32,000 bases of DNA from NCBI RefSeq assembly GCF_000008565.1, contig NC_001264.1:157418-189417 (forward strand). The letters run 5' to 3'. The notes below the pieces were generated by a model. The model did not search any database. It saw only the letters and a list, made by a program, of their open reading frames with translations, and was not told the DNA's origin. This stretch comes from Deinococcus radiodurans R1 = ATCC 13939 = DSM 20539 (GTDB taxonomy: Bacteria; Deinococcota; Deinococci; Deinococcales; Deinococcaceae). Positions 5,187 through 30,991 of the stretch are shown here, in pieces. Position 1 is the first letter of the stretch, and each line of letters begins with the position of its first letter. Made by a program: the position numbers and the translations under genes.

Positions 5187-5402
5187 GCTTTCGCGCCCCC
5201 ACGTCCTCTTCCTGCGCTCCTGTGCCGGGAAGGGGATTTGCTTTGCCGCCCAAACCGCCCACAAATCCGACCCGACCGACATTTTGTTTACCCACCGGGG
5301 GTATTCTTCTCCGGTTGTGACACAGCAGAGGCCCGCAGGCCGGGAAAGGCCGGGCCGCCCTGCACGTCCCTTGCCGTTTCGCCTGCTCCCCGAGGTTTCC
5401 CC

Positions 5403-5989
5403 ATGACTGACCTGCTCGACCTGCTCCGTTCGCCCTGGCCCTGGTGGGTGGGCGGCCCCCTGATCGGCCTGACGGTGCCGCTGCTGCTGTGGCTGGGCAA
5501 CAAATCGTTCGGCATTTCCAGCAACCTGCGCCACCTGTGCGCCATTGCGCTGCCCGAGGCGGCCAAGCCGCCATTTTTCCGCTATGACTGGCGGGCCGAA
5601 GGGTGGAATCTGGCCTTCGCGCTGGGGTTGGTGCTGGCCGGGGCAGTGTTCGGCGGCCTGCTCGCCAACCCGCAGCCCACGCACCTGAGCGCCGCCGGAG
5701 TCCAAAGTCTGCACGACCTCGGCGTGGCGGTGCGGCCCGGTCTGGTGCCCGCTGAACTCACTGACCTGCGTCATCCCGGCGTGTGGGGGCTGCTCGCCCT
5801 GAGTGGCCTGCTCATCGGCTTCGGCACCCGCTATGCGGGCGGCTGCACCAGCGGTCACGCGATTACCGGGCTCAGCACCCTGCAACTTCCGAGCCTGATT
5901 GCCACCGTCTCCTTTTTCGCCGGGGGCATCTTCAGCGCCAACGTGCTGCTGCCGCTCCTGTTCGGCGCCCTGGGTATCGGAGGGCTGAA

Positions 5990-5993
<4 letters not shown>
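5403..5993 (+). CDS. YeeE/YedE-family membrane protein (sulfur-compound transport family), first half-size subunit
   Basis: ATG at 5403 ([23 protein letters not shown]...) follows a GAGG Shine-Dalgarno. The hallmark [14 protein letters not shown] motif and several TM segments are present. Confidence 0.8.
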
Positions 5994-6463
<470 letters not shown>

Positions 6464-6503
6464 GCTGTGGCCCACAGCATTTCCCTTTCCCCCGGAGGAC
6501 CCC

Positions 6504-6932
6504 ATGAGTGACATCCTGACCTGTACCCACTGCCAGGCCAAAAACCGCGTCGGTGCTGTGCCCGCCGGACAGGTGCCGAGCTGCGCCCGCTGCGGCGCCG
6601 CGCTGCCCTGGCTGCACGACGGCACCGACGCGACCTTCGAGCAGGACCTTCAGACAAGCGTGCCGGTGCTGGTGGACTTCTGGGCGCCGTGGTGCGGCCC
6701 CTGCCGCGTGATGGGGCCGGTTCTCGAAGACCTCGCCCGCGACCTGCCCGGCAAGGTGCGGGTGGTGAAGGTCAACGTGGACGAGAACCCGCGCACCGCC
6801 GCCCGTTTCGAGGTCCGCAGCATTCCCACGCTGCTGATGTTCAAGGACGGGGAAGAGGTGGACCAGATGGTCGGCGTAACCCAGAAGGCGGCGCTGCGGG
6901 CGCGGGTGGAACACCTCAACCAGCTTTCCTGA
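6504..6932 (+). CDS. trxC: Thioredoxin with N-terminal zinc-finger extension (Trx2/TrxC type)
   Basis: The N-terminus carries CTHC...CARC (two CxxC pairs). The thioredoxin core has a WCGPC active site. GGAGGA Shine-Dalgarno precedes the ATG at 6504. Confidence 0.9.
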   Translation: MSDILTCTHCQAKNRVGAVPAGQVPSCARCGAALPWLHDGTDATFEQDLQTSVPVLVDFWAPWCGPCRVMGPVLEDLARDLPGKVRVVKVNVDENPRTAARFEVRSIPTLLMFKDGEEVDQMVGVTQKAALRARVEHLNQLS

Positions 6933-6977
6933 ACGGCGCTGCTTCGCTGGCTGCTGGAAGTCAAAACCGGCTTGTTT

Positions 6978-6998
6978 GGTTATGCTATTTACATAACC
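6978..6998. promoter_or_regulatory. Perfect palindrome GGTTATG-N7-CATAACC. Candidate repressor operator that resembles the Deinococcus RDRM (DdrO site) as I recall it.
   Basis: Read directly: ggttatgctatttacataacc, with 7-bp arms that are exact reverse complements. It lies in an AT-rich patch 62 nt upstream of the ATG at 7060 and overlaps the predicted -35. Confidence 0.5.
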
Positions 6999-7016
6999 AC
7001 TCCTCGCGTGTAGACT
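6988..7016 (+). promoter_or_regulatory. Sigma-70-like promoter for the 7060-12994 operon
   Basis: TTTACA (6988-6993), a 17-nt spacer, then TAGACT (7011-7016). GAGG Shine-Dalgarno is at 7051-7054, before the ATG at 7060. Confidence 0.4.
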
Positions 7017-7059
7017 CAAAGGTGAAAACCACCACCTTCTCTGTTGCCCCGAGGTTCCC

Positions 7060-7464
7060 ATGCTGGTTGAAACCAAGATTGTAGGCCGCCGCACGCCGTT
7101 CGAGCGCAAACCCTTCGACCTGCCCGCTGGGCCGCACACCCTGCGGAGCCTGCTTACCCACCTCGTCGCCGGGGAAGTCGCCGCCTATGAAGAGCGGCAG
7201 GGCAGCGTCGGCGTGCTGCGGGTACTGACCGAGCAGGAACTTTTGAGTGGCGCCGCCGCCGGCAAAATCCAACTGGCACCGCAGGAGCGGGGCGGCGTGG
7301 TCACGCCTGAGGAGGCGACCCGCACCGCCCTGCGCGCCTTTGAAGACGGGCTGTACTACGTCTTCGTGGACGACGAGCAGGTGGAAACGCTTGACGAAAC
7401 CGTTGCCCTACAGCCCGACAGCACCCTGTTGCTGCTGCGCCTGACCGCGCTGGCGGGGGGCTGA
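7060..7464 (+). CDS. Hypothetical 134-aa protein with ubiquitin-like (beta-grasp-like) N- and C-terminal segments, ending ...LRLTALAGG-stop
   Basis: Third codon positions are G/C-rich and a Shine-Dalgarno is present. The stop lies 2 nt before the next ATG. The C-terminus YVFVDDEQVETLDETVALQPDSTLLLLRLTALAGG compares with the ubiquitin tail [34 protein letters not shown]. The N-terminus MLVETKIVGRRT compares with [12 protein letters not shown]. Confidence 0.7.
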   Translation: MLVETKIVGRRTPFERKPFDLPAGPHTLRSLLTHLVAGEVAAYEERQGSVGVLRVLTEQELLSGAAAGKIQLAPQERGGVVTPEEATRTALRAFEDGLYYVFVDDEQVETLDETVALQPDSTLLLLRLTALAGG

Positions 7465-7466
7465 GC

Positions 7467-10400
7467 ATGGCCGGGGGTCTGGACCTCACCGAGTATTTCC
7501 GCCAGTACGAGCAGCCCTGGCAACCCGACTTCGCGGCCCGTCTCGCCGCCGCGCCCGAGTCGGTGCAGGGCTGGGTGCAGGCGCGGCTGACCGAGGGAAA
7601 AACCTGGCCCGCGATGCAAGAGCAGGCGCGGGTCTGGAGTGAGGCTTTACTCAGCGCTTCCCCGGAGGAATTGCGGGCGCTCACCGGCGTTCTGTTTCCT
7701 CAGTTTCCTGAGCTGGCCGCCCGCGCCTACCGCACGGTGCTCGAAACGCGGCCCTACACGCGGGGGCTGCTGCGCCGCGCCTTTCGCGCCGGGGCGCAGG
7801 GAAACGACGCCGAGCGCGGTGGGGCCGCCGCCGGGTGGCTGTGGAGCCTCTGGACGCTGCTGCGGGCCTACCCGGAAGGCGTGCTGTGGGTGGCGGAGGC
7901 GGCGGGGCTGTTCGAGGCTTATGAGAGCCGCCTGCTGGGGCCACTGCTCGCGCAGGCGGTGAGTGAGGGAGATGCGGGCGTCCTGCAACTGCTCAAGGAC
8001 ACCGCCAGCACCCAGCACCCCGTCGCCCGGATGGGGCGGCACGTGCCGCAGGCGCTCCTCGGCAGCGACGACCCGCAGGCGTGGGAGTATGCCCGGCAGT
8101 TGCTGCTCGCGGCGCAGCGGCAAGAGGGGCTGCGACAAGTCATCCTCGAAACGGTGGACGAGGCACACCCCGGCGCTTTTCCCCTTTTCCTGAACACGGT
8201 GCTCGATGAAGACCTGCTGCGCTTTGCTGCGGTGCTGCGGGCCGCCTGCGTGTGGTACGGCCTGGGCTACGACGTGACCGACATGAAAAAGGTGCGGCAG
8301 TTGCTCACGCTGGCGCGGGGCTATCTCGAAGACGCGGCGCAGGTGACACAGGCCGTGAGCAGCGGCAGCGGCGAGGAAGTCTATATGGCGCTCTACACGC
8401 TGGGGATGCGCGACGCGGACGAGGCCGCCGCGCTCGCCCGGCCCCTGCTCACCGACCCCGACCCCGCGCGCCGCATGGCCGCCGCGCAGTTTCTGAGCGC
8501 CGCGCACTTGCTCCAGTCCGCTGACCTCGCCCGCCTCCTTGCCGATGAAGACCTGCGGTTGGGCGCGGTGGCATTGGCCCCGGGCTCGTACCCTTCCGGC
8601 TGGGTTACCCCTGAGAACACGAACCCCCTGACCTTCGACGCGCTGCGGGCCTACGCCGAGCGTCTCTCCCGCGCGCCCCGGCACGACCCGCTGCTCTTTC
8701 CCTGGCTGGGCGACGTTCCCGACCGCGCCAGCGTGACGGATGGGCTGGTCGCCGTGCTGCCTCCCGACGAACTCGGGCGCATCGTGCCGCACCTGGGCGA
8801 GCTGTCCCCCGGCGGCAAAAGCTTTCTGCTCGCGCGGCTCCGGGCGCTGGCCGAGCGGAGGGACAGGGGAGAGACGGTTCGCCTTCCCGACGATACACGC
8901 TTCATCCTGCTGACCCTGCTGCAAGACCGCAGCAGCGCCACGTCGCAGGAAGCGGTGACGACCCTCACGGCGCTGAGGCTGGAGCTGTCGGGCGAGGAGC
9001 GCACGCTCGCCCACGACCTGCTGCGGCGCAAATCCGCCGACCTGCGCCGGGGACTGATTCGCCTGCTCGCGGCGGACCCCGCCCAGGGCGCGGCGAGCGC
9101 GGCGGCGCTGCTGGCCCTCAAAAGCACCGAGCAGCGGCAGGCGGGATTGCAACTCCTTGAAGAAGTCGGCGGCCTGCCCCCCGCCGATTTTCAGCCCAAA
9201 AACGTTTCGGAAGCGACGCTCCTCGCCAAACTCGCCGCGCCGGAGAGCCAGCTCACCCTGAACAACGGCCTGGGCCTCTTCGACCCGCAGGACCTCAGCC
9301 AGCCCCAGCCGCTGCGCCCGTCTGACAACGACTTCGTGGCCGACGTGGAGCGCGGCGCGGAGCTCCTTCGTTCGCTCGACGACTTTCTGGCCGAGCACGC
9401 CGAAACCCCGGTCTCGGGCACCGGCTGGGACGGCGAAACGACGGAGCTGCTCACGAATCTGTCGCCCTACTGGCTGAGTGCGAGAGTGGGGCGCGACATG
9501 CCGCTCGCCGGGCTCTGGAACGGCTGGTGGGCGGCGCGGGCCGGCGCGCAGGAAGGCGACCTCACCCGGATGGCCTGGGCGCTGGGGCACCGGGTCGACC
9601 GCACTGAGACGACCGAAACCGAGCTGCTTCAGGAATTGAGCGAGGGCGGGGACACCTCCCCGGAACAGGAACACGCCCGCCTCCTGCGCCAGCGCCTGAT
9701 TCAGCAGACCCTGCACGCCGTTCTGGGGCCACCCGTTCCGCTCAAGCTCGACCGGGCGCCGCTTATCGAGCCGGTGCTGGACTACCTGTCCACGCAAGAG
9801 CTGACCGAAGTGGACACCGGGATGCAACTGGACGCCTGGGAAAGCGCGCTGAGCCGCCTGCCAAGCGATACGCCCCTGCTGAAACTGGGGGAGGAGCGGT
9901 GGCAGGTCGAAGACCCGCGCTCGCTGCTCGGTCCCCTGGTTCTGCAAGGCATCGAGCTGGCGGCCCTGCCCGCCGAGCAGTTCCAGCAGCTCTGGCGAGT
10001 TCAGTTGCACCACCATGCGGCCTTTCCAAACCTGCCCCGCCTGCGGATGTCCGCCGAGATGCTCATTCTCGCCGAGCGCGCGGGGCTGGCGAACCGCGCC
10101 GACCTGCTCGACCTGCTCATCGGGGAGCGGAACGCCGGCATGGGGGACGTGTATTACGGCAATTCCTTCGACGACTTGCGGAGCTATACCCGGCGCAAGC
10201 TGTCCGACCTCCTGCCGACCTCGCCCGCCTGGATGCAGGCCGTGAACGACGCCCGTGACCGCGTGCTCGCCGTCGAGCTGGAGCGCGGCGACCTCGAAAC
10301 GCCCGCCACCCTGCCCGCGCTGGCGCTGCAAAGCGTGAGCGGCGCGGCCCGGACGCTGCGGCTGCTGGCCGGCCTGGGTAAACAACCGCTCCGGCGCGGG

Positions 10401-12347
10401 TACAGCGGCCACAGTCTGGGCAAGGACGCGACCTTCAGTCACCTGCTGCGGGTGTCGTTTCCTGACCCCGGCGACACCGCCCAGACTGTGCGCGAGCAGG
10501 CGAAAACCCTGGGGCTGAGCGACCCCCGGCTGCTTGACCTCGCCATGTTCGCGCCGCAGTGGGCCGAGCTCGTCAGCGGCGCGGTGGGCTGGAAGGGGCT
10601 GGCGGACGGCGTGTACTGGCTGCACGCCCACACCCGCGACTCTCAGTGGAGCGTGCCGACGGACATCCGCGAGGCCTGGGAAGCCGAAATCAGCGAGCGC
10701 ACGCCGCTGCGCCCCACCGACCTCACCGAGGGTGCCGTGGACGTGGCGTGGTTCCGGCGGATGCACCGCGCCCTGGGCCGCGCGCACTTTCAGACCTTGC
10801 TCGGCGCGGCCAAATATGCGTCGTCCAGTGGCGGGCACAAACGCGCCGAACTGTTCGCCGCGGCCATTCTGGGCGAGGTGCCGGAAGACACCCTGCTCGC
10901 CCGCATCCGCGAAAAACGCAACCAGGACGCGGTGCGGGCGCTGGGGCTGCTGCCGCTGCCGAAGGGCAAAAAGGCCGCGCAGGTGCTGGAGGCGCGTTAC
11001 CTCACCCTCGTCACCTTTCGCCGCGAGACCCGGCAGTTCGGCGCGCAGCGGCAGGCCAGCGAGCGCCTCGCCGCCGACATCGGCCTACAAAACCTCGCCC
11101 GCAGCGCCGGATACGCCGACCCCCAGCGCCTGATGTGGGCAATGGAAGCGCGCATGGCCCCCGACTGGCAGCAGGTGGTGACCGCCGATGGGGTGACCGT
11201 GAGCGCCGAACTCGATGGGGCGGGCGCAGCGACCCTGCTCGTCCGGCGCGGCGAGAAGCCCCTCAAGACCCTGCCGCCCGCACTCAGAAAAAACCCCGAG
11301 GTGCTCGCGCTGCGTGAGGCCGTCAAAGACCTCGCCGCCACCCGCACCCGCATGCGCGCGGCCCTCGAAGAAGCGATGGTGCGCGGCGACCACTTCACCC
11401 CCCAGGAACTCCGCGACCTCGCGCGGCACCCGATCATCGCCCCGATGCTCGGGAGTCTGGTGTGGGTGCTCGGCGAAGGGCCGCTGGGCTTCTGGGAAGA
11501 CGAAAGCCTGCGGACGCTGACCGGAGAACTCCCGCTGGGCGACCAGGCCCTACGCCTCGCACACCCGCACGACCTTTTTACTGGCGGGCAGTGGCGCGAG
11601 TATCAGGCGGCAGTGCTTAAGCGCCAGCTCACCCAGCCCTTCAAGCAGGTCTTCCGCGAGTATTACCCGCTCACCGCCGCCGAAAAAACCGCCCAGCGCA
11701 GCGTCCGCTACGAGGGCCACCACGTTCAGCCTGTCAAGGCCGCCGCACTCCTCAAGGCGCGGGGCTGGGTCAGCATTTACGACGAAGGCACCCGCAAGAC
11801 CTTCCACGACGAGGGCCTCAGTGTCTGGATTGACGATGCGCTTAGCGCCGGCACCCCGAACGAGGTGGAAGGCCTGCCGCTGCACGCCGCCTATTTCATG
11901 CGGGTGGGCGAGGCGCAGCCCCTGCCACTGGCCGCCGTTCCGCCCCGGCTGTTCAGCCAGGTCTTGCGCGACCTCGACCTCGTGGTGAGTGTGGCCCACG
12001 TGGGCGGCGTGGACCCCGAAGCCTCGCAGAGCACGGTGGAAATGCGCGAAAGCCTGCTGCGCGAGACTCTGCGCCTGCTGAAGCTGAAAAACGTGCGCCT
12101 CGAACACGGACACGCCCTGATCGACGGTCACCACAGCCGCTACAGCGTGCACCTCGGCAGCGGCACCGTTCACCGCCAGCCGGGGGGCTTCCTGTGCATC
12201 GTGCCGGTTCACAACCAGGCGCAGGGCCGCCTCTTTCTTCCCTTCGCCGACCCCGACCCGCGTACGGCGGAGGTGGTAAGCAAGGTGCTGCTGCTCGCCG
12301 AAGACCGCAAGATTCAGGACCCGACGATTCTGGAACAGTTGCGCTGA
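7467..12347 (+). CDS. Giant (1626 aa) alpha-helical repeat protein. The C-terminal ~600 aa resemble the DUF4132 / MolR-YehI family. Function unknown.
   Basis: Uninterrupted 4.9-kb ORF with strong G/C third-position bias. HEAT-like repeats occur (e.g. LLTDPDPARRMAAAQFL). The C-terminal motifs APQWAELV, TPLRPTDLTEGAVDVAWF, GGHKRAEL, NQDAVRALGLLPL, RQFGAQRQASE, QPFKQVFREYY, LRDLDLVVSVAH and YSVHLGSG match my memory of DUF4132-family proteins. No search was possible. Confidence 0.85.
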   Translation: MAGGLDLTEYFRQYEQPWQPDFAARLAAAPESVQGWVQARLTEGKTWPAMQEQARVWSEALLSASPEELRALTGVLFPQFPELAARAYRTVLETRPYTRGLLRRAFRAGAQGNDAERGGAAAGWLWSLWTLLRAYPEGVLWVAEAAGLFEAYESRLLGPLLAQAVSEGDAGVLQLLKDTASTQHPVARMGRHVPQALLGSDDPQAWEYARQLLLAAQRQEGLRQVILETVDEAHPGAFPLFLNTVLDEDLLRFAAVLRAACVWYGLGYDVTDMKKVRQLLTLARGYLEDAAQVTQAVSSGSGEEVYMALYTLGMRDADEAAALARPLLTDPDPARRMAAAQFLSAAHLLQSADLARLLADEDLRLGAVALAPGSYPSGWVTPENTNPLTFDALRAYAERLSRAPRHDPLLFPWLGDVPDRASVTDGLVAVLPPDELGRIVPHLGELSPGGKSFLLARLRALAERRDRGETVRLPDDTRFILLTLLQDRSSATSQEAVTTLTALRLELSGEERTLAHDLLRRKSADLRRGLIRLLAADPAQGAASAAALLALKSTEQRQAGLQLLEEVGGLPPADFQPKNVSEATLLAKLAAPESQLTLNNGLGLFDPQDLSQPQPLRPSDNDFVADVERGAELLRSLDDFLAEHAETPVSGTGWDGETTELLTNLSPYWLSARVGRDMPLAGLWNGWWAARAGAQEGDLTRMAWALGHRVDRTETTETELLQELSEGGDTSPEQEHARLLRQRLIQQTLHAVLGPPVPLKLDRAPLIEPVLDYLSTQELTEVDTGMQLDAWESALSRLPSDTPLLKLGEERWQVEDPRSLLGPLVLQGIELAALPAEQFQQLWRVQLHHHAAFPNLPRLRMSAEMLILAERAGLANRADLLDLLIGERNAGMGDVYYGNSFDDLRSYTRRKLSDLLPTSPAWMQAVNDARDRVLAVELERGDLETPATLPALALQSVSGAARTLRLLAGLGKQPLRRGYSGHSLGKDATFSHLLRVSFPDPGDTAQTVREQAKTLGLSDPRLLDLAMFAPQWAELVSGAVGWKGLADGVYWLHAHTRDSQWSVPTDIREAWEAEISERTPLRPTDLTEGAVDVAWFRRMHRALGRAHFQTLLGAAKYASSSGGHKRAELFAAAILGEVPEDTLLARIREKRNQDAVRALGLLPLPKGKKAAQVLEARYLTLVTFRRETRQFGAQRQASERLAADIGLQNLARSAGYADPQRLMWAMEARMAPDWQQVVTADGVTVSAELDGAGAATLLVRRGEKPLKTLPPALRKNPEVLALREAVKDLAATRTRMRAALEEAMVRGDHFTPQELRDLARHPIIAPMLGSLVWVLGEGPLGFWEDESLRTLTGELPLGDQALRLAHPHDLFTGGQWREYQAAVLKRQLTQPFKQVFREYYPLTAAEKTAQRSVRYEGHHVQPVKAAALLKARGWVSIYDEGTRKTFHDEGLSVWIDDALSAGTPNEVEGLPLHAAYFMRVGEAQPLPLAAVPPRLFSQVLRDLDLVVSVAHVGGVDPEASQSTVEMRESLLRETLRLLKLKNVRLEHGHALIDGHHSRYSVHLGSGTVHRQPGGFLCIVPVHNQAQGRLFLPFADPDPRTAEVVSKVLLLAEDRKIQDPTILEQLR

Positions 12348-12409
12348 GTGGGGGCGTCCGGGGCCTGCGCCATCTCTTTGCCGCCCCAGACGCTAACGTT
12401 GTGCCCCAG

Positions 12410-12994
12410 ATGCCTGTTCCTGTCCCTCGCGCTTACCCCCGCTTGAGCCATGCCATCGGCTTCGACGACGCGCCGTTTGCCCGCGAGTGGCGCGGCGACG
12501 TGCGGATTTTTGGGGCCGTCTACGCCGGGCCGACCCTGCACGCCGTGGTCAGCGGGCGGGTCCGCCGCGACGGGCGCAACGCCACCGACGAACTCAGCCG
12601 GCTGGTCACGGCGCAGGCCGAGCACTTGCAACTGGTGTTCTTGCAGGGTATCGCGCTCGCGGGCTTCAATGTGGTGGACCTCGGCGCCCTGCACGCCCGC
12701 ACGGGCCTGCCGGTGCTGGTGGTGGCCCGCAGGAAACCCCGGCTCGACCGCATTCGCCGCGCCCTGCTCGAAGAAGTACCGGGCGGCGCGCGCAAGTGGC
12801 GCCTCATCGAGCAGGCAGGGGAGATGGAGCCCTGCGCTGGCCTCTACGTCCAGCGGGCGGGCCTGTTGCTGGCAGAGGCGGAAGCCGCGCTCGGCACCTT
12901 TTGCCTTACCGGGCGCATTCCTGAACCTCTACGCACGGCCCACCTGATTGCCGGAGGCGTGACGCGCGGCAGCAGCGCGGGCCAGCGCGTTTAA
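12410..12994 (+). CDS. DUF99/UPF0215-family protein (endonuclease V-like fold; Endo_dU family)
   Basis: ATG at 12410 (MPVPVPRAYPRLSHAIGFDDAPF...). The family-typical motifs GFDD near the N-terminus, DG.NATDEL, GIALAGFNVVD and GLPVLVVARRKP are present. The 12194-12409 extension overlaps the giant gene and is rejected. Confidence 0.8.
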   Translation: MPVPVPRAYPRLSHAIGFDDAPFAREWRGDVRIFGAVYAGPTLHAVVSGRVRRDGRNATDELSRLVTAQAEHLQLVFLQGIALAGFNVVDLGALHARTGLPVLVVARRKPRLDRIRRALLEEVPGGARKWRLIEQAGEMEPCAGLYVQRAGLLLAEAEAALGTFCLTGRIPEPLRTAHLIAGGVTRGSSAGQRV

Positions 12995-13010
12995 CAAGGC
13001 CTCCGATTGA

Positions 13011-13205
13011 GTCCAGCAATAGTCCGTGCAGTTTTGGAATTCAGCTAACCAAGCTGCGATAAACACGGCGTTTTTTGTCCCTCCCTCCTTGCGGGGGAGG
13101 TTGGGATGGGGGAGCGCAAATGGCGTCCTAGACAGCAAGATCTTGATCGCCCTCTGTAACGACCACAAAACTGCACGAACCATTGGTCCAGTTGTTTTGG
13201 ATTCA
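13011..13205. repeat. Small non-coding repeat / MITE-like element (Deinococcus SNR-type)
   Basis: Inverted repeats are gtccgtgcagttttgg (13022-13037) and ccacaaaactgcacgaac (13163-13180). Flanking direct repeats are cagttttggaattca and cagttgttttggattca. The central core tgtccctccctccttgcgggggagg...gggggagcgc is shared with the element at 18720-18765. It fills the convergent gap between DUF99 and modB. Confidence 0.5.
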
Positions 13206-13237: not shown

Positions 13238-14038
13238 CTAACCGGCGGCCCGTTCCCGCCGTCCGGCAACACTGCGGACCAGCAGCAGCAATCCGAACGC
13301 GACGAGCACCATCACCGCGCTCAAGACCAGTGCGGGCGCGAGGTCGGATTCCAGCGCGGCGTAGATGGCCAGCGTGACCGTGCGGGTTTGGCCTTGCAGC
13401 GACCCGGCAAACAGGATGGTGGCGCCGAATTCGCCCAGCGCCCGCGCCCAGGCAAGGACCAGCCCCTCCAGCAAAAAGGGAAACGCCAGTGGCCAGGTGA
13501 TCAGCCGGAAGACCTGCCCGTCACTCGCGCCATCGGTGCGGGCAGCGTCCTCGGCGTCGCGGTTCACCGCCTGAAACCCGGCGCGGGCGGTCCGCAGGTA
13601 AAAAGGCGCCGACACGAACAGTTGCGCGAGCACCACCGCCGCCGTGGAAAAGGCAAGCTGAATCCCCGCGAGTTCGAGCGCCGGCCCCAGCAGCCCGCCG
13701 CGCCCGAAGGTAAGCAGCAGTCCAACCCCCGCCACCACCGGCGGCAACACGATGGGGAGGTCAAGGAGCGTTTCGAGGACGGGCTTGCCCGGAAAATCGA
13801 AGCGCGCCAGCAGCCACGCAACCGGCGTGACCAACGTGACGGTGAGCAGCAGCGTGATTCCGGTGGTCAGCAGACTGACGCGCAGGGCGTCCCCCACCGC
13901 CCGGCTCGCCAGCGCCGGCCAGAACGACGCCGTCAGCCCCCGCGTGAGCAGCACCAGCACCGGCACGACCAGAAACAGCGTCAGCGCCCCCCCCAGCAGC
14001 AGGGCCAGCGGAGGCGCGGAGCGGGGCGGGCGACTCAT
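13238..14038 (-). CDS. modB: Molybdate ABC transporter permease ModB
   Basis: 266-aa multi-TM protein with the ABC permease loop (ARTDGASDGQVFRLITWPLA) and ModB-like sequence. It lies immediately downstream of modA. Confidence 0.9.
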   Translation of the reverse strand: MSRPPRSAPPLALLLGGALTLFLVVPVLVLLTRGLTASFWPALASRAVGDALRVSLLTTGITLLLTVTLVTPVAWLLARFDFPGKPVLETLLDLPIVLPPVVAGVGLLLTFGRGGLLGPALELAGIQLAFSTAAVVLAQLFVSAPFYLRTARAGFQAVNRDAEDAARTDGASDGQVFRLITWPLAFPFLLEGLVLAWARALGEFGATILFAGSLQGQTRTVTLAIYAALESDLAPALVLSAVMVLVAFGLLLLVRSVAGRRERAAG

Positions 14039-14099
14039 ACGGTTCTGGACTTTAATTCACCTCGGCCAGAAAAGCATCAGCCGAAGCTTCTGACCTGCC

Positions 14100-14855
14100 T
14101 CAGCGCGGGCTCTGGAAGCCCCATTTACGCAGAATCTTCTGGCCTTCGATCGAACGGACGTACGCGATGAAGGCTTGCGCGGCGGCAGCGTTGCGCGACG
14201 CCTTGAGCGTGCCGATAGGGTACCTCGCGGTCTGGTTGAAGCGCGTCGGCAGCGCGACCACTCGCACGTCGTTTTTCAGGGCGGGCGTCACGTCGCTGCG
14301 GTAGACCACGGCGGCGTCGGCCTCGCCCAGCCCCACCTTCAGTGCCACCTGCCGCACGTTGGGCTCCTCGCTCACCACGTTTTTCATAAACCGCGCCGAA
14401 AAGTCCTTGCCGTAGGTGCCCGCCTGATCAATGGCCCCCAGCATCCGCCGGGTGTAGTCCCCGACCGGCACGGCCTTGTCGGCAATCACGATTCGGACCC
14501 CCGGCGCCGTCAGGTCACGCAGGGTGCTGACTTTGCGGCTATTGCTCGGCACGATGACGGCGAGTTTGTTGCTGACGAACGGCTGCCCGGCCACGACCAA
14601 TCCGGCCTTGACCAGCGGGTCGAACTGGGCATTGTTCGCGCTGGCGTACACGTCGGCCCGCGCCCCATTTTCGAGTTGGGTACGCAGCGCCTGCGACCCG
14701 GCGAACTGAAAAACGGTCTTGTTGCCGGTGCGGGCGTCGAACTGCTGGCCGAGTTCGGTAAAGGCGTCAGTCAGCGAGGCGGCGGCAAACACGGTGAGCT
14801 GAGCGGCGGAGGCGGTGCTGCCCAGCAGCAGGGTGGTCAGGACAATCAAGCGCAT
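14100..14855 (-). CDS. modA: Molybdate ABC transporter substrate-binding protein ModA
   Basis: Signal peptide MRLIVLTTLLLGSTASAAQ followed by LTVFAAASLTDAF, YASAN and ADAAVVY, which are typical ModA motifs. GAGGAGG Shine-Dalgarno is present. Confidence 0.9.
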   Translation of the reverse strand: MRLIVLTTLLLGSTASAAQLTVFAAASLTDAFTELGQQFDARTGNKTVFQFAGSQALRTQLENGARADVYASANNAQFDPLVKAGLVVAGQPFVSNKLAVIVPSNSRKVSTLRDLTAPGVRIVIADKAVPVGDYTRRMLGAIDQAGTYGKDFSARFMKNVVSEEPNVRQVALKVGLGEADAAVVYRSDVTPALKNDVRVVALPTRFNQTARYPIGTLKASRNAAAAQAFIAYVRSIEGQKILRKWGFQSPR

Positions 14856-17682: not shown

Positions 17683-17877
17683 TTACCCTCCGCCGATGAC
17701 CCGCACGATTTCCACCACGTCCGCCTCCTCCAGCTCGCGGTCGGGGGCCTGACCGCCGGGGTAAAAGTCGTCGTTCACAGCGATGGCGACGCGCTCAGGC
17801 CGGATGTCCAGTTCGCGCAGCAGGCCGTGCAGGGTGAGGCCGGGTACGCAGGGGCGGGGTTCTCCGTTGACTTGCAT
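17683..17877 (-). CDS. thiS: Sulfur carrier protein ThiS
   Basis: 64 aa, [10 protein letters not shown]...[10 protein letters not shown]-stop. It has the ThiS length, the C-terminal GG and the position between thiE and thiG. The longer ORF 17683..18303 is rejected. Confidence 0.85.
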
Positions 17878-20846: not shown

Positions 20847-20866
20847 AGAACAAAAGTCTCTGCGCC

Positions 20867-20969
20867 CGTCACACTCCCTCCGCTGGTGCTAACCAGTTCA
20901 GGTTCATAGGGTTAGGCCCGAGTTGCCCTCTCAGCCTCCGGCCCATATGCGGAGGCACCCCTGTTGACG
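20867..20969 (-). promoter_or_regulatory. TPP (thiamine pyrophosphate) riboswitch aptamer
   Basis: The minus strand reads CGTCAACAGGGGTGCCTCCGCATATGGGCCGGAGGCTGAGAGGGCAACTCGGGCCTAACCCTATGAACCTGAACTGGTTAGCACCAGCGGAGGGAGTGTGACG. It contains the conserved GGGGTGC, CTGAGA, ACCC..TGAACCTGA.CTGG.TA..ACCAGCG.AGGGA blocks and a closing P1 helix. Confidence 0.92.
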
Positions 20970-20977
20970 ATGCCCCG

Positions 20978-30118: not shown

Positions 30119-30991
30119 ATGCATCCACAGGACGAACGGCAACTCAAGCTGACGCGAGCGTTGCAGGAAGCGGACCTCGACACCGTGCTGGGGATTCTGG
30201 GGCCGGAGCTGCGCTGGCCGCTCAAGCAACTGCGGAGCAACCTGCGGCTGATCTTCGCGGCGGCGGAGCGCGACCATGTCAGCTTGCTGCATCCGCCTGC
30301 CGATTTCGTGACGTGGTTGCAGGGGCCACTGCACGAAACGGTTAAGGGGCCGGGCACTGCCAAGGCGAATACCGTGGTGGCGCGGCTTTCCACCATCTCA
30401 CGGCTGTACGAACTGTTGATGGACGAGGGCGTTGTGATTCGTCAACCGCTGCGGGGACTGGTGCGCCCGCCGGGGGAACGCAAGGTGGAAAAGGTGCCGC
30501 CGCGTGAAGACATCGAGCGGCTGCTGGTGCACGCGCAGCCTGACCCGGCGCTGTTCGCCGCTTTGACGCTGATGTACCGACATACCTTTCAGGTGGCCGA
30601 GATGCTCGCGCTGCGCTGGTCGGCGTTCCGGCACGAAGACGGCACCATCCTGCGGCGGCGGACGCTATGCCAGCTTGACGACGCGAGTTATGCGGCGCTC
30701 GACCGGCTGCTCGCGCAGGCGGGGGGGCCGCTGTCTAATCCCGCCGGGCGCATTTTCCCCTTTGAAAACAACGACGCGCTGCGGACCCGAATTTTTCAGG
30801 TGTGCCGGGAGGCCAATCTCACCTTCGTCAATCCAGCCAAGCTGCGCAAGGCAGGGCTGCGCGACTTTCCACTTACGCCCGATCAGGCAGGCTTTATCGG
30901 CGACGAGGCGTATGCGCTGGCAAGAGAACTGGCGAGCCGCTTGACGGAGGAGGACTCCGTCTCTTCTGCCACTGGGTCGGTCAATCAATAA
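30119..30991 (+). CDS. Tyrosine-recombinase (phage-integrase)-like protein, apparently degenerate
   Basis: ATG at 30119 lies directly after an AT-rich promoter-like patch. The N-terminal core-binding-like segment is TVVARLSTISRLYELLMDEGVVIRQPLRGLVRP. The box-I-like segment LTLMYRHTFQVAEMLALRWSAF has Q where the catalytic Arg is expected. The box-II-like segment AKLRKAGL lacks the His residues. Confidence 0.55.
   Translation: MHPQDERQLKLTRALQEADLDTVLGILGPELRWPLKQLRSNLRLIFAAAERDHVSLLHPPADFVTWLQGPLHETVKGPGTAKANTVVARLSTISRLYELLMDEGVVIRQPLRGLVRPPGERKVEKVPPREDIERLLVHAQPDPALFAALTLMYRHTFQVAEMLALRWSAFRHEDGTILRRRTLCQLDDASYAALDRLLAQAGGPLSNPAGRIFPFENNDALRTRIFQVCREANLTFVNPAKLRKAGLRDFPLTPDQAGFIGDEAYALARELASRLTEEDSVSSATGSVNQ

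Follow-up and report, generated by a model that had tools for sequence, protein, structure and literature searches.

We find that DR_A0165 of Deinococcus radiodurans, a small protein that ends exactly in Gly-Gly, and the giant protein DR_A0166 are encoded as a strict two-gene module, and that changes at the end of the small protein's tail go together with changes at one cysteine of the giant, Cys1577 (C1577). This co-variation is new here and suggests an undescribed ubiquitin-like mechanism. Our preferred reading, which we hold on balance rather than firmly, is that the two proteins make up a dedicated complex in which the tail is docked at the C1577 site; covalent chemistry at this cysteine is a tentative possibility. 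All positions refer to the window, the whole 32,000-nucleotide stretch of DNA that was analysed, and the features are collected in Table 1.

Table 1. Features of the DR_A0165-DR_A0166 module, with positions in the window.
Feature	Position	Strand	Description
RDRM, DdrO operator GGTTATGCTATTTACATAAC	6978..6997		palindrome arms 6977-6984 and 6992-6999
Predicted sigma-70-like promoter	6988..7016	+	-35 TTTACA, 17-nt spacer, -10 TAGACT; consensus match only
DR_A0165 = DRO_A0167 = WP_227086044.1	7060..7464	+	134 aa, predicted beta-grasp-like fold with insert
Conserved tail codons R127-L-T-A-L-A-G-G134	7438..7461	+	family motif RLxxLxGG-stop
DR_A0166 = WP_010889426.1	7467..12347	+	1626 aa, DUF5724 + DUF4132 + DUF7737
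DUF5724 region, aa 84-1226	7716..11144	+	mostly helical repeats; Pfam E = 4e-179, 598.6 bits
DUF4132 domain, aa 1264-1434	11256..11768	+	Pfam PF13569 E = 7e-45
DUF7737 domain, aa 1524-1625	12036..12341	+	Pfam E = 7e-36, 122.8 bits; proposed tail-binding site
Cys1577 codon TGC	12195..12197	+	motif PGGxLC[IV][IV]P in DUF7737

Gene model of DR_A0165

DR_A0165 lies on chromosome II of D. radiodurans. Translation of the plus-strand frame at 7060-7464 yields 134 aa with the C-terminus DSTLLLLRLTALAGG followed at once by TGA, which confirms the first-pass annotation's reading of a 134-aa ORF ending in LRLTALAGG and a stop. A GAGG Shine-Dalgarno motif is found 7 nt 5′ of the ATG at 7060. An older annotation gives the gene only 83 aa; since residues 1-51 of the longer product are kept across phyla (G9, L28, V36, E39), the longer model is correct and the shorter one is wrong. 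Peptides of DR_A0165 have been seen by mass spectrometry, with levels up ~4-fold after irradiation (PMC9650054); the C-terminus was apparently outside the coverage of these published data.

DNA-damage regulation of the operon

The operator upstream of DR_A0165 is identical to the RDRM reported at -83 of DRA0165 with DdrO ChIP-seq support (PMC8533742). We observe RDRM-like sites (≤3 mismatches) at -76 to -95 in all 15 of the 15 Deinococcus-genus loci. The predicted promoter is the sole promoter-like site in 6850-13100, a region in which shuffled sequences lead one to expect 0.2 such sites, and its -35 hexamer overlaps the right RDRM arm. Because the published DdrO operator overlaps the only promoter-like site, the pair is induced by DNA damage. 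Published experiments found that mitomycin C induces the DRA0166-V5 protein in a way that depends on IrrE and that depletion of DdrO derepresses the operon (PMC8533742). With an RDRM near the promoter here and DdrO/IrrE dependence in that report, the pair belongs to the Deinococcus radiation-desiccation response (RDR) regulon. In other phyla, a search for upstream LexA boxes with simple regular expressions gave two isolated matches and no systematic pattern.

Conservation and variants of the Gly-Gly tail

The tail of DR_A0165 is conserved far above chance. A GG terminus is present in 98 of 99 close homologues, and 127 of the 146 diverse cluster representatives recovered by a whole-length profile search (87%) have GG followed by the stop. 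R127, L128, L131 and G133 show little or no variation, and G134 is ~90% conserved. The earlier observation that the stop codon follows the GG immediately thus holds for most of the family. Invariance of the GG across orthologues does not hold, as the remaining 13% of diverse members end in GA, in GG plus 1-2 residues, or in GRxW, SGI, SGR or SGH. The first-pass annotation had itself proposed that orthologues without a conserved terminal Gly-Gly would count against it, and by this measure an obligatory carrier or conjugation role is weakened.

Both terminal positions draw on all four Gly codons, and 18 loci retain the GG even with the partner start >13 nt away or upstream of the GG codons. The tail is therefore under constraint at the protein level and is not a by-product of a ribosome-binding site.

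Predicted fold and relationship to ubiquitin-like proteins

The AF2 model of DR_A0165 (pLDDT 77) has the order b1 b2 a1, insert, a b3 b4 b5, with a terminal tail of low confidence. Foldseek searches of PDB and BFVD with this model placed MoaD, ubiquitin and Urm1-type proteins at the top, with no match below E = 0.05. The proposal of a beta-grasp fold is thus the best available reading of the model, although no structural match is significant at that level. An independent published structure prediction agrees with the MoaD-like resemblance, and both the fold resemblance and the damage induction of DR_A0165 are already in the literature (PMC9650054, PMC8533742). We predict, with moderate confidence, a beta-grasp of the MoaD/Urm1/ubiquitin type into which a conserved helical segment of ~45 aa is inserted. 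An insert between two ubiquitin-like parts had been noted previously and is indeed present; however, it carries the conserved residues R46, Q47, G68 and K69, so it is more than a spacer.

Sequence comparisons gave much less. The family matches no Pfam or NCBIfam family, and in a Pfam scan of 131 members against the PF02597, ubiquitin and Urm1 models none reached E ≤ 1. Searches of PDB sequences by phmmer and hmmsearch with the small protein found no significant match to ubiquitin, MoaD, ThiS or Urm1. Using hhalign, the family profile was compared with E. coli MoaD (E = 0.095, not significant), with a MoaD alignment that was shallow, containing only relatives ≥78% identical (E = 0.13, not significant), and with the ThiS encoded in the window itself at 17683-17877 on the minus strand (E = 0.2, no similarity). 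Sequence profiles (Pfam, NCBIfam, hhalign) thus do not place DR_A0165 in the ThiS/MoaD family, and the family's sole sub-threshold signal is to b1-b2-a1 of Urm1. The first reading had also lined up the C-terminal part with ubiquitin; hhalign recovers the same ALQPDSTLLL register, but over 10 columns only and at E = 0.39. As judged by these comparisons, the likeness to ubiquitin is a motif-level resemblance with no detectable homology.

The giant partner DR_A0166

The stop of DR_A0165 and the start of DR_A0166 are read as TGAgcATG, and this 2-nt spacer suggests that the two genes are probably coupled in translation. Three regions make up the giant. DUF5724 is dispensable in the short actinobacterial partners of 834-841 aa, in which only the last ~70 DUF5724 profile positions are left, DUF4132 and DUF7737 are retained, and the small gene is still present. 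The DUF4132 domain scores 153.6 bits against PF13569, for which the gathering cut-off is 27. DUF7737 is the best conserved part of the partner, with a mean column identity of ~0.8 among 43 full-length homologues, and in the same set C1577 is the only conserved cysteine.

An AF2 model of the C-terminal core (pLDDT 84.3) was used to search PDB with Foldseek and gave nothing below E = 0.4; PDB profile searches with the giant yielded noise only. Neither domain scans nor the structure search with the core model identified an adenylation, E1, E2, HECT or JAB fold or motif in the partner.

Family spread and gene pairing

The DR_A0165 family comprises 2072 clusters from at least six phyla, and the pair occurs in Deinococcota, Cyanobacteria, Chloroflexota, Armatimonadota, Actinomycetota and Bacteroidota. 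In at least 68 of 71 loci, the gene that follows the small one encodes a homologue of the giant, and in 57 of the 71 the start of this homologue overlaps the small-gene stop or lies ≤13 nt from it. The 71 loci share no conserved neighbour besides the pair itself. An E1, E2 or JAB gene is neither present in the 32-kb window nor conserved among the 71 related loci, which bears out and extends the earlier remark that none is adjacent. We likewise found no association with MoaE, ThiG, ThiF or a sulfur acceptor, the giant being the only conserved neighbour. The plasmids on which the pair was matched are megaplasmids or chromosome-II-type replicons. A role in anti-phage defence or as part of a mobile element was considered and rejected: PADLOC gave no hits for either protein and PHROG no meaningful ones.

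In D. radiodurans, the neighbours of DR_A0165 include YeeE/YedE sulfur-transporter genes, trxC, modAB, a thi cluster and xdh. MoeA is encoded 0.8-4 kb from the pair in 5 loci from two phyla. We dropped the molybdenum and sulfur context as functional evidence, since these neighbours are not conserved across loci.

Co-variation of the tail end with Cys1577

The identity of residue 1577 follows the end of the small protein. It is Cys in 46 of the 46 inspected pairs with GG, GA or GGC ends (41 full-length and 3 short partners of GG-stop proteins, 1 GA and 1 GGC). It is replaced in every lineage with a tail that is two residues longer or has lost the second glycine (GGYF/GGYY, GRLW, GRMW, SGI or SGH): by Ser with GGYF and GGYY, by Ala or Thr with GRLW, by Met with GRMW, and by Phe with SGI and SGH. 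Among 242 conserved partner positions, the only ones to differ in all five variant partners are C1577, a column at which the window itself has Ser, and A320, whose changes are conservative. For a single pre-specified site, the pattern is expected by chance at ~8e-4, or ~1e-4 with core-only rates, and a permutation gave P = 0.001. The diversity of variant-tail pairs comes from exact-protein look-ups; a metagenome scan for diverse pairs returned only near-identical gut Bacteroides loci. 'G1460' was set aside as a second co-varying site: it is not robust, being Ser in the window's own partner.

A proposed dedicated complex with a docked tail

The first-pass annotation had offered, as the second of two alternatives, that the GG tail serves to dock onto the giant partner. 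The near-universal pairing and the co-variation of tail and C1577 lend this idea support, and from them we infer a physical complex with a tail-C1577 contact. The short actinobacterial partners, which hold on to DUF7737 together with the small gene, and E. coli YehI, which has neither, also speak for this reading, as do the predicted fold and the damage induction of both gene products. DR_A0165 would be the dedicated small subunit of DR_A0166, and the two genes would form a self-contained module whose transcription in Deinococcus starts, after DNA damage, at a single promoter repressed by DdrO. The flexible tail, RLxALxGG-COOH, would insert into DUF7737 of the partner, much as the MoaD tail does in MoaE, and place its terminal glycine beside Cys1577. 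The complex would then serve in the response to DNA damage, in which other DUF4132 proteins also appear to take part.

The contact could instead be chemical. After adenylation, the Gly134 carboxylate would form a thioester or an acyl-disulfide with Cys1577; the adenylating enzyme would be a shared E1 of the MoeB/TtuC type, encoded at another locus, or the giant itself through an activity not yet recognised. The giant would serve as an E2- or HECT-like carrier handing the small protein to a target in the damage response. We treat covalent charging as a tentative possibility. An exact GG-stop in most diverse members is what is seen in carriers whose carboxylate is used chemically, and the coupled residue is a cysteine, the only conserved one in the partner. 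To our knowledge, cysteine is the nucleophile of all Ubl transfer chemistry. The replacements of C1577 (F, M, A, T, S) are not size-compensating and look like a joint loss of constraint, and the GA and GGC tails retain the Cys. The same phylum provides a precedent, as a distant E1, TtuC, serves TtuB, MoaD and ThiS, and TtuB is conjugated to its partner enzyme (PMC3980101). However, the partner and its neighbourhood contain no detectable adenylation, E1, E2, HECT or JAB fold or motif, and ~6% of partner fragments lack the Cys. Additionally, the module is well conserved in clades without GG and Cys, including Bacteroides loci from human-gut metagenomes, so any chemistry is not essential to the core function; lineages without both would retain the non-covalent function only. 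In its fullest form, this alternative would make the pair a minimal self-contained Ubl charging system with no recognisable E1, E2, E3 or DUB fold and the giant as carrier or ligase in the response to DNA damage, which we consider doubtful. The pair is under DdrO control in Deinococcus, and related DUF4132 proteins are under LexA in E. coli. Gut Bacteroides, Saprospiraceae and others might, somewhat speculatively, have lost the chemistry secondarily and kept the complex.

It is improbable that DR_A0165 is a free sulfur carrier or modifier, that is, a divergent protein of the MoaD/ThiS/TtuB type that is thiocarboxylated by a housekeeping E1 and either gives its sulfur to targets unrelated to the giant or is conjugated onto them, possibly in Moco metabolism, with the pairing reflecting co-regulation only. 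The best structural matches are MoaD-like and the tail ends in GG; the sulfur and molybdenum genes near the pair in D. radiodurans and the five loci with MoeA would also fit, and annotation makes the E. coli DUF4132 gene a regulator of molybdate metabolism. However, DR_A0165 fails to join ThiS/MoaD by sequence, those neighbours are not conserved, and the Moco genes are not derepressed together with the operon (PMC8533742). The GRLW, SGI and SGH clades are incapable of a C-terminal glycyl thiocarboxylate, and neither the strict pairing with the giant nor the co-variation of the tail with C1577 is accounted for.

A published account describes the product as SEP068184, an 83-aa sORF peptide specific to Deinococcus that interacts with thioredoxin DR_A0164 and makes cells less resistant to oxidative stress, with no part for DdrO or the giant; survival of H2O2 improved in the knock-out, and a Trx1 pull-down was positive (PMC9650054). 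We regard this explanation as very unlikely. The real product has 134 aa, and the constructs were without b1, b2 and most of helix 1. The interactors numbered 157 and included DnaK, DnaJ, GroES and ribosomal proteins. An RDRM is present, the family extends far outside Deinococcus, and thioredoxin is not a conserved neighbour. Finally, GGGGGC does lie 5-10 nt ahead of the partner ATG in the window, but the idea that the tail is a nucleotide by-product (GGN GGN as the Shine-Dalgarno of the downstream gene) or a functionless chance likeness is effectively refuted by the codon and spacing control above and by the conservation of the entire RLxxLxGG motif as protein across phyla.

Comparison with known systems

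The module resembles MoaD-MoaE (molybdopterin synthase) and the ThiS/MoaD sulfur carriers (PF02597) in having a small GG-stop protein whose predicted structure is best matched by MoaD, a small gene directly upstream of its partner and probably coupled to it in translation, no adjacent E1, and a flexible tail that is proposed to insert. It differs in that the small protein has 134-145 aa with the ~45-aa insert (ThiS and MoaD have 66-81 aa), the partner has 830-1750 aa and is not MoaE or ThiG, there is no sequence-profile relationship, and the GG is not obligatory. YukD (type VII secretion) and Hub1 are non-conjugated beta-grasp partners of larger machines and are not known to have a conserved GG-stop. 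A non-covalent role of this kind fits the GRLW, SGI and SGH clades; in contrast to YukD and Hub1, 87% of the DR_A0165 family have a GG-stop, which is coupled to a partner cysteine.

TtuB/TtuC/TtuA of Thermus thermophilus, Urm1-Uba4 and the archaeal SAMPs, which are sulfur carriers and modifiers at once, are likewise systems of GG beta-grasp proteins that rely on a shared distant E1 and are conjugated to their own partner enzymes, and TtuB comes from the same phylum as Deinococcus (PMC3980101). Unlike DR_A0165, they can be assigned to known families and have their role in tRNA thiolation; a TtuA/Ncs6-type partner and a JAMM gene are absent from the system described here. The CBASS Cap2/Cap3 and Bil/Bub operons also encode a bacterial Ubl with a C-terminal glycine in a compact operon. 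In those operons, E1, E2 and JAB or other peptidase genes stand beside the Ubl and the role is anti-phage (PMC10097602, PMC10557695), whereas the DR_A0165 pair has no E1, E2 or JAB, has no PADLOC match, and is regulated by DNA damage.

The DUF4132 domain of DR_A0166 is shared with E. coli MolR, YehH and YehI and with D. radiodurans DR2173. YehI aligns with it at 24% identity over 185 aa; it has no DUF7737 and no GG-tailed neighbour. DNA-damage induction is common to several of these genes, with molR under LexA and both DR2173 and DR_A0166 under DdrO, and a known SOS box is on record for molR (PMC6590174). MolR and DR2173 differ from DR_A0166 in having an N-terminal WGR domain where the latter has DUF5724.

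Significance

Among the functionally uncharacterised genes of the model radioresistant bacterium, DR_A0165 and DR_A0166 rank with those under the strongest DdrO control. Setting the gene length at 134 aa and not 83 reconciles two conflicting papers, since the 83-aa model led one group to overlook the RDRM and to work on a shortened protein. The strict two-gene module defined here includes a large family that stands outside Pfam and NCBIfam and is not specific to Deinococcus, reaching at least six phyla and the Bacteroides of the human gut. Naming one residue pair, the terminal Gly-Gly and Cys1577, provides a direct and inexpensive experimental handle. If the link is covalent, the pair would represent a mechanism of ubiquitin-like transfer that uses unrelated folds and is linked to survival of DNA damage; if it is non-covalent, it would still offer a first way into the organisation of DUF4132/DUF7737 proteins.

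Gene model and operon structure

DR_A0165 is an ORF of exactly the kind described by the first-pass annotation, with two terminal glycines followed directly by TGA, and carries a GAGG motif 7 nt 5′ of its ATG (7060). The window matches the D. radiodurans chromosome II sequence NZ_OV024759.1 at 100% identity, and RefSeq labels DR_A0165 "hypothetical protein" (WP_227086044.1, 134 aa) and DR_A0166 "DUF4132 domain-containing protein". There is no terminator-like site between them, and the −35 hexamer of the upstream sigma-70-like site coincides in part with the right-hand arm of the RDRM palindrome.

Coordinates of features in the window (nt, or aa of DR_A0166 where marked)
Feature	Position	Strand	Details
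Two YeeE/YedE sulfur-transporter genes, trxC	5400-6932		upstream flank
RDRM palindrome arms	6977-6984, 6992-6999
RDRM GGTTATGCTATTTACATAAC	6978-6997
Sigma-70-like promoter	6988-7016		only such site within 6850-13100
DR_A0165	7060-7464	+	134-aa ORF, MLVETKIVGRRT...DSTLLLLRLTALAGG, TGA immediately after
83-aa form (SEP068184)	7213-7464	+	residues 52-134
DR_A0166	start 7467	+	1626-aa ORF; junction TGAgcATG
Patch AAQRQEGLRQxI	8109-8144 (aa 215-226)	+	helical-repeat region
DUF5724	aa 84-1226
DUF4132	aa 1264-1434
DUF7737	aa 1524-1625
C1577 codon TGC	12195-12197	+	motif PGGxLC[IV][IV]P within DUF7737
DUF99/Endonuclease-dU gene	12410-12994	+	~60 nt after giant gene
modB, modA	13238-14855		molybdate transporter
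ThiS	17683-17877	-	64 aa, ends VIGGG; inside thiC-thiE-thiS-thiG-thiD cluster, ~10 kb from module
TPP riboswitch	20857-20972	-	Rfam RF00059, 58.6 bits; upstream of thiC
Site-specific integrase	30121-30945	+	near window end, beside diguanylate cyclase gene; unrelated to module

The pairing of the two genes is widely conserved. In at least 68 of 71 loci the small gene is immediately followed by a giant homologue, which in 57 of them starts ≤13 nt from the small-gene stop or overlaps it, and clustering of all neighbouring ORFs revealed no other conserved gene near the pair. The 32-kb window holds no ThiF/MoeB, E2, JAB or rhodanese gene, in line with the earlier observation that no E1, E2 or JAB is adjacent. 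In D. radiodurans the module is preceded by pstSCAB-phoU, the YeeE/YedE genes and trxC (DR_A0164), and followed by the DUF99/Endonuclease-dU gene, modAB, the thi cluster and the xdh operon for a molybdenum-cofactor-dependent enzyme. These sulfur and molybdenum flanks look suggestive for a MoaD-like protein, but other genomes do not keep these neighbours. The DUF99 gene may be co-transcribed with the giant gene here and is no conserved neighbour elsewhere. A Pfam-confirmed MoeA (molybdopterin molybdenumtransferase) gene occurs 0.8-4 kb 5′ of the small gene in two Deinococcus (L001, L002) and three Pseudanabaena (L030, L033, L034) loci, which echoes the old label of E. coli MolR, "molybdate metabolism regulator"; given the many Moco-related genes that could be noticed, this proximity in two unrelated lineages is not significant.

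In the giant, the C-terminal 526 aa retain ~50% identity across phyla and model well (pLDDT 84.3). This region has no PDB analogue by Foldseek (best E = 0.4) or profile search, and we saw no E1, E2, HECT or JAB-like element in the giant. Actinobacterial partners (834-841 aa) are reduced to the tail of DUF5724 plus DUF4132 and DUF7737, whereas E. coli YehI shares DUF4132 alone and has neither DUF7737 nor a GG-tailed neighbour. A second, unexpectedly invariant patch lies at aa 215-226, far from the C-terminal core. Some partner homologues (P0258, P0282; L159:148-2106) also have precomputed WGR (PF05406) matches besides the three DUFs, which ties the subfamily to MolR and D. radiodurans DR2173 with their WGR-DUF4132 architecture. 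In one metagenomic lineage with ...GGC tails (L166:1236-6089, L167), the module sits beside Prim-Pol, TPR protein and DDE transposase genes, which may point to a mobile context for this lineage alone. Our literature search found no paper that assigns a function to DUF4132, DUF5724 or DUF7737.

DNA-damage control

The operon has been characterized as a target of DdrO. Eugenie et al. 2021 (PMC8533742) listed an RDRM, identical to that in the window, at -83 of DRA0165 with DdrO ChIP-seq support, and found strong derepression of drA0165-drA0166 upon DdrO depletion; in their hands mitomycin C also induced DRA0166-V5 in an IrrE-dependent way. Zhou et al. 2022 (PMC9650054) handled the gene as an 83-aa "sORF peptide", SEP068184, which was up ~4-fold after irradiation, and stated that the protein is confined to Deinococcus and lacks an RDRM. 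Neither statement holds for the 134-aa gene. The conflict between the two studies arises from the gene model: the 83-aa form begins at the GTG codon of V52 and lacks β1, β2 and most of helix 1, and the 134-aa model reconciles Zhou et al. with an RDRM at -83 and a wide phyletic spread.

All 15 Deinococcus-genus loci have an RDRM-like site (≤3 mismatches to the window site) between -76 and -95, against a strict-pattern background of ~0.07 matches per kb. Deeper-branching Deinococcales MAGs have no RDRM site, and a search for LexA-box patterns in other phyla gave no systematic signal. In E. coli, the DUF4132 gene molR is in the SOS regulon list with a known SOS box (PMC6590174), so that damage induction of DUF4132 proteins runs through two unrelated repressors.

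Predicted fold of DR_A0165

An AF2 model built from a 46-sequence alignment (mean pLDDT 77.3, pTM 0.66) places strands at residues 2-8, 15-18, 99-103, 106-108 and 122-128, with helices at 28-53, 58-66 and 83-95 between the second and third strands; confidence is low at about residues 50-80 and in the final three. Foldseek against the PDB ranked MoaD on top (3rpf_C, E = 0.05; 5mpo_B, prob 0.85, TM by target 0.54), with ubiquitin and Urm1-type chains making up nearly all the remaining top 50, and no match at E ≤ 0.001. In BFVD, searched independently, the first two matches were a giant-virus ubiquitin (TM by target 0.55) and a ubiquitin-like protein (0.44). DR_A0165 is probably a β-grasp protein with a conserved helical insert. 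Sequence signals were all sub-threshold: Urm1 β1-β2-α1 (hmmsearch E = 1.6; hhalign P = 0.0018), MoaD α1-β5 (E = 0.095-0.13) and ubiquitin (10 columns, E = 0.39). Membership of the ThiS/MoaD or ubiquitin sequence families is thus not detectable, and the window's genuine ThiS, an internal comparator, has no similarity to DR_A0165. The proposed likeness to ubiquitin shows in the structural matches, themselves below significance, and is no significant sequence link. The fold resemblance (to MOCS2A, SAMP1 and Urm1) and damage induction are not new, as they were already reported in PMC9650054 and PMC8533742; Iyer et al. 2006, surveying prokaryotic ubiquitin-like proteins, made no mention of the gene.

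Conservation of the tail

No Pfam or NCBIfam model matches DR_A0165. A word-indexed search returned 99 homologues, almost all of them Deinococcus proteins, with GG at the end of 98, and a profile run against 1.84 billion cluster representatives gave 2072 matches at E ≤ 1e-3 (862 at E ≤ 1e-10). Scanning one genome per species yielded the 71 loci, in Deinococcota, Cyanobacteria, Chloroflexota, Armatimonadota, Actinomycetota and Bacteroidota; 68 end in GG, a count that is biased because one of the two retrieval patterns held the tail itself. The less biased figure comes from 146 profile-search representatives, in which the terminal GG, whose invariance the first-pass annotation had raised, proved frequent and not invariant: 127 end in GG, 8 in GA, 6 in GG plus 1-2 residues (GGC, GGYF, GGIF, GGYY), 3 in GR[MS]W, and one each in SGI and SGR. 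A non-GG entry ending in ...SSYR (P0197) may not be intact. The constant core is R127-L128-x-x-L131-x-G133, with G134 ~90% conserved. GG is a constraint at the protein level; all four Gly codons are used at both terminal positions, and GG is kept in 18 loci whose Gly codons cannot be the partner's ribosome-binding site.

The module turned up on many human-gut metagenome contigs of Bacteroides (L073:7227-14984, L076-L155; 80 loci kept from 297 hits), and their ...LSGRLW tail is stable (79/80 loci, 79-99% identity to the query). In B. finegoldii, which has this tail, the small gene lies 8 nt past the end of a rhomboid protease gene, with a GAF-domain gene after the giant. One member on a short AT-rich metagenomic contig (L168:247-702, ...LAGGIF) has no partner gene in 700 nt downstream and may be an orphan.

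Co-variation of the tail with C1577

DR_A0166 has two cysteines, of which only C1577 is conserved (≥95% in 43 full-length homologues). When each small protein was paired with its own partner, the tail end co-varied with this residue, a new and directly testable observation.

Tail end of the small protein and residue 1577 of its own partner
Tail	Partner 1577	Loci
GG-stop	Cys	41 full-length + 3 short actinobacterial pairs, five phyla
GA-stop	Cys	L053
GGC-stop	Cys	L166
GGYF, GGYY	Ser	L060, L170
GRLW	Ala (Thr in one)	gut Bacteroides, 37 complete pairs
GRMW	Met	L163
SGI	Phe	L160
SGH	Phe	L156

Among 242 partner positions that are each ≥93% conserved in 44 GG/GA/GGC-type partners, just three are changed in every one of the five full-length partners with variant tails: A320, where the changes are conservative, one other column that is already Ser in the window's own partner, and C1577. 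The variant lineages are mutually 28-33% identical. The L160 partner is otherwise canonical-like (41-42% identity to cyanobacterial and chloroflexal partners), suggesting independent loss. From observed per-lineage substitution rates at conserved sites, the probability that one pre-specified site changes in all four independent lineages is ~8e-4 (~1e-4 with core-only rates), and permutation gave P = 0.001 for three or more such sites; these statistics rest on few independent events, and rates vary between sites. The Cys is missing from about 6% of metagenomic partner fragments; among these, a small protein could be retrieved for L156 alone, and its tail is non-GG.

Interpretation

The most parsimonious reading, and the one towards which we lean, is a docking complex, whatever the chemistry. 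DR_A0165 and DR_A0166 would form a dedicated two-subunit complex in which the DR_A0165 tail enters DUF7737, in the manner of MoaD with MoaE, and its terminus is positioned against C1577.

Covalent loading of the carboxylate on C1577, as a thioester or acyl-disulfide, is a rather doubtful extension. The exact GG-stop is widely conserved, the residue coupled to it is a cysteine whose replacements give no size compensation, and the E1 could plausibly be a shared one from another locus: Thermus TtuC works for TtuB, MoaD and ThiS alike, with TtuB also becoming conjugated to its partner TtuA (PMC3980101). However, an adenylating or Ubl-transfer fold is not detectable, and the module stays conserved in clades without both features, so any chemistry would be non-essential to the core function. 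A classical free sulfur carrier is improbable. Working with the 83-aa form, Zhou et al. identified 157 proteins in co-IP, recovered the thioredoxin DR_A0164 by pull-down and observed more H2O2 resistance in the knock-out; their reading as a Trx1 inhibitor seems very improbable to us, and an artefact scarcely credible.

The observation that opened this analysis is thus confirmed and its reading supported in part. Its product is probably one of the GG-tailed β-grasp proteins, a known kind, among which it is new in being an uncatalogued sequence family with a conserved insert, in lacking an adjacent E1, E2 or DUB, in having a unique giant partner, and in being under DNA-damage control.
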